From UHGV virus genome UHGV-0326727: a stretch of 64,000 nucleotides of DNA; one strand, written 5' to 3'. Below the pieces are notes generated by a model, which was not told where the DNA came from, ran no database searches, and saw only the letters and a program-made list of their open reading frames with translations. Origin of the DNA: a virus. Position 1 is the stretch's first letter; each line of letters starts with the position of its first letter. The position numbers and the translations under genes were made by a program. Of the stretch, positions 59,843-59,985 are shown one piece after another.

Positions 59843-59985
59843 ATTATCTTTGTAGATAAGTTATTAAGCTTACCTGTGAGTATGCGACCACAAAGGGTGA
59901 AAGGGTAAATTCTAGATTTAAACCCAACAAGGCACATCGCTACAGACCTTAAGCAAGTCTGGGTAGCTTATCTACAAAGATAATT
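59843..59985. repeat. perfect 18-bp inverted repeat flanking about 107 bp (long hairpin or MITE-like element)
   Basis: attatctttgtagataag (59843-59860) and its exact reverse complement cttatctacaaagataat (59968-59985). Confidence 0.6.

Follow-up and report, generated by a model that had tools for sequence, protein, structure and literature searches.

The tRNA array and its RNA elements

The window analysed here is a stretch of 64,000 nucleotides (64 kb) of viral DNA, UHGV virus genome UHGV-0326727. Over segment 59500-60300 it shares 99.8% identity with Enterobacteria phage UAB_Phi87, and this segment has matches in 263 phage records, nearly all of them Ounavirinae; judged by sequence, the region is the tRNA array of a Felixounavirus (a Felix O1-type phage). 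The + strand carries 24 tRNAs predicted by ARAGORN from 58867 to 63205, 22 of which are confirmed by Rfam. The element described in this work is a long hairpin that lies within a tRNA-free stretch of 458 nt between tRNA-Asp (59454-59531) and tRNA-Lys(UUU), inside the RNA array, 1.1 kb downstream of a gene for a Ro60-like protein and on the same strand. The features of the region are the following (positions in the window):

57286-58701, +, gene of a Ro60-like protein (DUF2828 and DUF7788/vWA, MIDAS DxSxS), heading the RNA array
59036-59110, +, Y-RNA-like element 1, CAGAAGACC..CAGCAA..GGTCTGG (families D5, D12)
59203-59262, +, Y-RNA-like element 2
59619-59697, +, Y-RNA-like element 3
59709-59841, +, Y-RNA-like element 4, containing a tRNA-like module of T arm, loop-closed acceptor stem and D arm, the "permuted tRNA"; abuts the hairpin
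59842-59985, +, whole hairpin RNA element (fold, covariation, covariance model R1)
59842-59865, +, 5' arm of the closing helix (exact repeat 59843-59860), the inner end pairing via U·G wobbles
59903-59925, +, middle hairpin GGGUAAAUUCUAGAUUUAAACCC (fold; alignment pairs 70/91 and 75-78/82-85)
59943-59961, +, 3'-proximal mini-hairpin, CAGAC/GUCUG stem, loop CUUAAGCAA
59962-59985, +, 3' arm of the closing helix (exact repeat 59967-59984)
59990-60065, +, tRNA-Lys(UUU), beginning 4 nt past the helix
61129-61218, +, second long hairpin of about 27 bp (z -6.3), ending 1 nt before tRNA-Leu(UAG); possible partner

Sigma-70-like promoters are predicted at 58720 and 58811, and the next one at 60239, with no terminator found between them. 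The hairpin is thus expected to be transcribed together with the tRNAs from tRNA-Pro to tRNA-Ile, as part of a polycistronic + strand transcript that, as predicted from these signals, also carries the Y-RNA-like RNAs. A search of the literature found no usable transcriptome of a Felixounavirus or of Felix O1.

Other signals were seen further along the array. The promoter at 60239 (+) is a strong sigma-70-like sequence (TTGACA-17-TATAGT, 11/12) and is followed by an imperfect hairpin with 27-nt arms (60268-60372). Sub-threshold Rfam matches to tmRNA and permuted tmRNA (15-20 bits) over 60165-60559 are probably due to chance. A tRNA-like sequence at 60781-60855 (+), ending in ...GGGGTTCAACTCCTCCGTCCCATGCCA, was missed by ARAGORN and has a weak Rfam match to the tRNA-Sec clan (23 bits); it may be a degenerate tRNA or another tRNA-like RNA.

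A perfect inverted repeat closes a long and stable hairpin

The first-pass annotation of this DNA had described a perfect 18-bp inverted repeat directly after a "permuted tRNA", enclosing 107 bp that contain a small cagacc...gtctgg hairpin. The arms are indeed exact over 18 nt (ATTATCTTTGTAGATAAG, at 59843-59860 on the + strand and, as the reverse complement, at 59967-59984), the "permuted tRNA" that they follow is the tRNA-like module of the Y-RNA-like element at 59709-59841, and the small hairpin is present as CAGAC...GUCUG at 59943-59961. The figures need slight correction, as the interior between the exact arms measures 106 nt and the end at 59985 represents one extra paired base.

The repeat lengthens to 22 nt at 95% (59842-59863 and 59964-59985). 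As RNA, the closing helix comprises 22 Watson-Crick pairs, or 24 bp counting G·U (three U·G pairs), and it encloses 96 nt within an element of about 145 nt in all. The minimum free energy is -48.3 kcal/mol (z = -5.0 to -6.4), and none of 200 shuffled sequences was equally stable. The RNA itself is likely to begin near 59839 and to reach the RNase P site of tRNA-Lys, at about 59989. Rfam 15 gave no match over 59839-59988, either at the gathering score or at E<=5, and neither ARAGORN nor Rfam detected a tRNA-like domain in 59842-59985.

The hairpin is under selection as RNA

We aligned the homologous segment from 22 distinct Ounavirinae sequences (alignment A1). These sequences are of two types, one found in Felixounavirus proper and including the window (type A), the other in Moogle, Susp and Sf13-like phages plus some Felixounavirus (type B). 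RNAalifold recovered the long helix, the middle hairpin and the mini-hairpin from this alignment, and the sequence AUUCUAGAUU of the middle hairpin (59909-59918) is invariant across both types. A covariance model (R1) was built from A1 and, with the addition of two more distant relatives (L041 and L044), a 24-sequence alignment was obtained (A3). The model scores the hairpin of the window at 168.6 bits on the + strand and at 41.3 bits on the - strand. In A3, 99.2% of the cells are paired and 12 of the 33 pairs show two-sided changes; the covariation score is 0.276 against 0.134 ± 0.008 in shuffled alignments, and none of 500 shuffles reaches the observed value. As a control, sliding the pairing partners by 1-3 columns left only 0-3 two-sided pairs.

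U·G or G·U pairs occur at alignment columns 20/140, 21/139, 23/137, 26/134 and 27/133. Since each of these would become an A·C mismatch in duplex DNA or on the opposite strand, it is the RNA of the + strand, the strand of the tRNAs, whose structure is selected. The hairpin structure is real and is under selection as RNA.

Architecture and loops are conserved in distant relatives

More distant relatives were fetched through the protein encoded just upstream of the array (57286-58701). Most of their arrays that have a recognisable tRNA-Lys(UUU) carry a hairpin of the same design immediately upstream of it. The carriers are L041 and L044 (62% protein identity), L043 (Yersinia phage P778, 54%) and L045-L047 (53-57%), in all of which the closing helix is 22-24 bp long with 2-4 G·U pairs and the interior measures 93-116 nt. 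The distance from the end of the helix to tRNA-Lys(UUU) is 2-4 nt, with the exception of L045, where a tRNA-Lys(CUU) intervenes and the helix ends 29 nt upstream of it. The fold z-scores of these distant hairpins range from -3.2 to -6.4. The arm sequences vary by clade, with a 5' arm that stays U-rich (UUAUCUUUG, UUUUAUUUG, UUUUCUUUA). L042 (56%) deviates from the design: the outer helix, of only 12 bp, is prolonged by way of internal loops, the interior measures 126 nt and the element stops 10 nt short of tRNA-Lys. Model R1 retrieved L041 and L044 and missed the positional homologues that are more divergent (L042-L047), for which homology rests on position and architecture, not on a profile score.

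Two relatives differ further. In a 148-kb phage (L050, 48%) the hairpin before tRNA-Lys is cut down to a 19-bp helix with a 39-nt interior; its stem sequence resembles that of the window and the small 3'-proximal hairpin is kept. In L032, whose Ro60-like protein is 40% identical and which has few tRNAs and no tRNA-Lys, a hairpin is found 8 nt after a Y-like RNA, beside the Ro60-like gene. Its arms repeat over 20 nt, its predicted closing helix has 18 bp and its interior measures 96 nt; here homology is architectural only.

Every version of the element has a mini-hairpin of 5-6 bp near the 3' arm. Its stem changes (CAGAC, CAAACC, CAGUC, UGUUC, AAGUC, AGUCC) and covaries, and the loop that it carries is conserved as C(C)UU(A/U)AGCAA; L046 and L047 have CCUAUGCAA or CUUGCAC instead. 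The AGCAA sequence also marks the four upstream Y-RNA-like elements, which are defined by a "helix-UUAMAGCAA" motif, and the mini-hairpin CAGAC-C-UUA-AGCAA-GUCUG reproduces, on a small scale, the Y-like motif AGACCGU-UUAC-AGCAA...ACGGUCU. When the window was searched for an antisense target of the mini-hairpin loop, only the loop itself came up. A passive spacer would not need conserved loops on covarying stems, which argues that the interior of the hairpin has a role of its own.

Deletion variants

In three isolates parts of the region are lost, in none of them by excision. In L012 (6500-6540) a fusion joins the T arms of the tRNA-like element and of tRNA-Lys, and the hairpin is gone; in FG1m (L048, 3455-3531) everything from tRNA-Asn to tRNA-Lys is missing, hairpin included; and in ESCO56 (L001, 1480-1710) the neighbours on both sides, including tRNA-Lys, are deleted and the hairpin is kept. 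These deletions are recombination events between the near-identical GGTTCGA(A/T)TCC T-arms of the tRNAs and of the tRNA-like Y RNA. As L012 and FG1m are viable isolates, the hairpin is dispensable for propagation and is accessory rather than essential.

A Ro60-like protein and four Y-RNA-like elements accompany the hairpin

The protein encoded at 57286-58701 contains the Pfam domains DUF2828 and DUF7788/vWA, not TROVE, and its MIDAS motif DxSxS is invariant in the family. A single-sequence AF2 model was discarded (pLDDT 44), and only the model based on a multiple sequence alignment (pLDDT 85.7) gave a Ro60 fold match. Foldseek matched this model over its full length to Ro60/TROVE structures, among them the TROVE-containing Ro60 of Thermus phage phiLo (E 1.7e-8) and, also over the full length, Xenopus Ro60 (TM 0.62-0.64). 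Overall, the Ro60 matches have E values of 1.7e-8 to 2.8e-6 and TM scores of 0.49-0.64, and the next-best matches are isolated vWA domains. At the level of sequence no match to Ro60 was found, including in a sequence-profile search of the PDB with the protein family. The protein is thus Ro60-like by its modelled fold, not by sequence. The related gp130 of Bas63 has independently been called Ro60-like on structure and counters the Ppl defence system (PhageMaP, 2024 preprint, PMC11482910), and the same authors speculated that some of the "tRNAs" are Y RNAs of gp130 (PMC11482910).

Phage and metagenome data contain more than 3,000 members of the family of this protein at E<=1e-5. In Vibrio phage phi-pp2 (L049) the DUF2828 gene (3001-4437) is surrounded by protein genes and has neither a tRNA array nor a Y-like array next to it, so the linkage between protein and RNAs is not universal. 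A DUF5681 gene (56833-57204, +) is found immediately upstream of the Ro60-like gene, here and in L041-L047, a conserved synteny, and is a possible functional partner.

The four Y-RNA-like elements share the consensus N3C-AGA-AGACCNN-N3-CAGCAA...NNGGUCU-G-GN3, in whose fold an outer helix of 4 bp and an inner helix of 7 bp are separated by bulges of 3 nt on the 5' side and 1 nt on the 3' side; from copy to copy, the variable positions covary in both helices. In element 4 the acceptor stem also covaries (GUCGAGU/ACUCGGC in the window, GAAGGGU/ACCCUUC followed by GCCA in Moogle, GCGUGU/ACACGU in SUSP1), and Rfam matches a tRNA at 59732-59782 with 22 bits. Y RNAs of the YrlA type have such an architecture and are encoded beside Ro60 genes on the same strand (PMC4201824); the 5'-strand motif differs, being CGAAG in those RNAs and AGAAG in the elements described here. 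Elements of the form AAGAY...ACAGCAA, some with T arms, also flank the DUF2828 gene in L032 (40%; 1771-1831, 3527-3610 and 3627-3741) and in L050 (48%; about 4548-5105).

Other stems abut RNA genes of the array

The second long hairpin (61129-61218) has the stem box UCUUUNUAGA in common with the hairpin at 59842-59985, and its apical loop contains an invariant UUGUUGCU (61179-61186). Two complements of this sequence are seen, AGCAACAA in Y-like element 2 (59218-59225) and the AGCAA core of all the Y-like RNAs and of the mini-hairpin loop. A search for covariation between the mini-hairpin loop and the loop of the second hairpin found no compensatory changes, types A and B sharing only the 5-nt AGCAA/UUGCU core, and a kissing contact between the two loops, proposed on complementarity, is speculative.

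Shorter stems of 16-17 bp directly abut tRNA-Arg(UCU) (60521-60555, +) and Y-like element 3 (59581-59618, +). Such stems at the 5' ends of RNA genes are recurrent, being found in this array, before tRNA-Pro in L042-L047 and before tRNA-Glu in L050.

Proposed roles: a released RNA of the Ro60 system or a processing stem

The reading that we prefer, with somewhat better than even confidence, is that the hairpin is excised as a trans-acting RNA of a Ro60/Y-RNA system, with a helix that doubles as a processing stem. RNase P would cut at position +1 of tRNA-Lys, 4 nt past the helix, leaving the hairpin with a 4-nt 3' tail, and the 5' side would be set by the maturation of the abutting Y-like RNA. 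A nearly perfect helix of two turns is a typical substrate of RNase III. Because the length of the helix is conserved at about two helical turns, the host RNase III would very probably cut within its 22-24 bp, thereby detaching the tRNA-Lys-Met-Ile block from the Y-like RNAs and releasing a structured core of about 100 nt. Once free, the RNA would act in trans with the partner of the Y-like RNAs, either the Ro60-like protein or a factor recruited by it.

Several observations lead us to read the hairpin as a divergent member of the Y-like RNA set of the phage: the mini-hairpin resembles the Y-like motif, the orthologous hairpin of L042 has Y-like ends (5' CAAAG-AAUCU-UU-CAGCA, 3' UGCUG-CG-AGAUU-CCC-UG), the long hairpin before tRNA-Pro in L042 begins with CAGAAGAC, and L032 has its own hairpin beside a Y-like RNA. 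The hairpin of the window has neither a bulged helix nor a (C/A)GAA motif in the 5' strand, so direct binding of Ro60 by it is unsupported. We therefore do not file it as a Y RNA, and regard its place as a helix-closed, divergent member of the set as moderately probable.

The main alternative is that the element acts purely in cis, as a leader or processing stem (an RNase III site or a folding insulator) with an interior that is a tolerated spacer. The helix would then separate the tRNA-like Y RNA from tRNA-Lys(UUU) and set up the RNase P cleavage. The constant 2-4 nt between helix and tRNA-Lys(UUU) in most of the diverse arrays (the exceptions being L042 and L045) and the helix length held at 22-24 bp are in agreement with this, as are the strong divergence of the interior between types A and B and the stem sequence of L050, which is like that of the window. 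The 39-nt interior of L050 and the plain stems before tRNA-Leu, tRNA-Arg and tRNA-Glu favour a mainly cis role in processing, and similar stems precede Y-like element 3 and, in L042-L047, tRNA-Pro. A mere spacer, however, would not account for a mini-hairpin loop and a AUUCUAGAUU loop that are conserved while their stems covary, nor for an interior held to 93-116 nt in the Ounavirinae-like relatives, L042 with its 126 nt excepted. ESCO56 keeps the hairpin without tRNA-Lys, and L032 has a hairpin of the same architecture beside a Y-like RNA and no tRNA-Lys at all. A purely cis-acting stem is possible, but we hold it to be distinctly the less probable account. Whatever the interior does, the plain stems at tRNA-Leu, tRNA-Arg and Y-like element 3 make it likely that the helix has a processing or insulating role.

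More tentatively, the hairpin, the four Y-like RNAs and the hairpin at 61129-61218 could form an RNA-RNA or ribonucleoprotein network through pairing of UUGUUGCU with AGCAA(CAA), a network by means of which the Ro60-like protein would redirect the decay of host RNA or act against defence (Ppl, for instance, or nucleases that target tRNA-Lys(UUU)); the hairpin would then represent a new class of Ro60-system RNA. We consider this extension rather unlikely as it stands.

Readings at the level of DNA or protein

Apart from the excised trans-acting RNA and the cis-acting leader, all other readings taken together have only a small probability. The hairpin could be a palindrome that matters as DNA, in the form of a cruciform, a protein-binding site, a signal for replication or packaging, or a recombination hotspot. 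It is long and perfect, it lies within an A/T-rich spacer, and the region does suffer deletions. Yet each helix contains two to four G·U pairs that are A·C mismatches in DNA and on the opposite strand, the compensatory changes keep RNA pairing, the inner hairpins covary too, and the deletions observed end in tRNA T-arms, not in the palindrome. We regard this reading as very improbable.

The first-pass annotation had offered a choice between a long structured RNA and a small inverted-repeat mobile element. A miniature inverted-repeat transposable element (MITE) inserted next to the tRNA-like element would explain perfect 18-bp terminal inverted repeats and a length of about 145 bp. The element is single-copy in the window, however: no third copy of the arm is present in the 64 kb, even with three mismatches allowed, and two matches occurred in none of 100 shuffles. 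The hairpin query hits 199 places in 196 phage records, always at the same locus. No match was found in 5,426 complete E. coli genomes, and no target-site duplication at the flanks, ...GGTCTGGT and TAATGG..., which have no common direct repeat. The arms covary with wobble pairs and are not conserved as a transposase site would be, the position is unchanged in relatives whose flanking protein is only 48-62% identical, and the absences arose by the larger T-arm recombination described above, not by excision. Copy number, host distribution, the absence of a target-site duplication and the lack of conservation in the terminal repeats all speak against a MITE, which was rejected and which we consider highly improbable. 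The structured RNA is the half of the choice that stands, on covariation, on G·U pairs valid only on the tRNA strand, on an architecture conserved in distant relatives and on the lack of a conserved ORF among the hairpin homologues.

That the element encodes a small protein, as a "hypothetical protein" CDS over it in several GenBank records and a mechanical ORF at 59680-59937 on the - strand might suggest, is next to impossible, since its longest stop-free stretches are of 25-47 codons and vary in strand and frame between homologues, and its indels are not multiples of three.

Comparison with known RNAs

Y RNAs (YrlA and YrlB of Salmonella and mycobacteria, Yrl1 and Yrl2 of phiLo) are, like the hairpin, about 100-200 nt long, with ends paired into a terminal stem around a large structured interior, and they likewise lie near a Ro60-type gene on the same strand, with a sibling RNA that mimics tRNA (PMC4201824, PMC12135203). 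With a 24-bp helix, a 96-nt interior and a length of about 145 nt, the hairpin has the terminal stem and falls within the size (about 70-200 nt) expected of a Y RNA, and its same-strand neighbour is a Ro60-type gene, as far as fold tells. The Ro60 binding site in Y RNAs is a bulged helix with a motif in its 5' strand, GGUCCGA in animals and GNCGAAN0-1G or CGAA in bacteria and phages (PMC4201824, PMC12135203). The closing helix of the hairpin is uninterrupted, its 5' arm contains no such motif, and the YrlA motif GNCGAAN0-1G has no match anywhere in the hairpin. The hairpin thus differs from Y RNAs in having no bulge, CGAA motif, tRNA-like domain or Rfam match; an internal loop (AAG/CCC) and a Y-like 5' end are present in its L042 orthologue. 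The definition is much better matched by the four upstream elements, which have C-AGA-AGACC, a 3-nt bulge and the motif variant AGAAG, and the tRNA-like domain of the YrlA subclass is in the preceding element (59709-59841), not in the hairpin.

RNAC and RNAD of phage T4 are small stable non-tRNA RNAs of unknown function, co-transcribed within the T4 tRNA cluster (PMC3014915). The hairpin is likewise a non-tRNA RNA inside a phage tRNA cluster. In a blastn search ("distant" mode) of 50,697 phage records, its matches by sequence similarity were confined to Ounavirinae-type records, T4 not being among them. The species 1 RNA of T4, about 140 nt long, is an RNase III substrate in vitro; to our knowledge, T4 has no Ro60-like gene.

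The stems at which RNase III processes the flanks of 16S and 23S rRNA, or the R sites of T7, are also helices of about two turns around an RNA excised from a polycistronic precursor. The hairpin has the near-perfect helix of at least about 20 bp inside a longer precursor that is typical of them, with neither a promoter nor a terminator separating it from the RNA genes on either side, and it adjoins an RNase P site. It differs from them in that the enclosed RNA is of about 100 nt and has conserved loops of its own, and cleavage is here a prediction. With MITEs, the hairpin has in common terminal inverted repeats and a similar size.

Implications

The hairpin is a robust, previously undescribed RNA family that is absent from Rfam. 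No record annotates it as an RNA, the entries being "none" or "hypothetical protein", so that about 200 genome records leave an RNA of about 145 nt unannotated or label it wrongly as protein, and this in Felix O1-type phages, which are widely used in typing and therapy. The four bulged-helix Y-like RNAs, one of them YrlA-like, and the helix-closed RNA are candidate RNA partners of the gp130-type protein, and the hairpin is thereby a candidate component of a phage Ro60-like ribonucleoprotein with a reported anti-defence phenotype. The presence of the AGCAA motif beside DUF2828 genes in three unrelated phage groups suggests that the DUF2828 proteins are a large, overlooked branch of Ro60-type ribonucleoproteins with an RNA family of their own.
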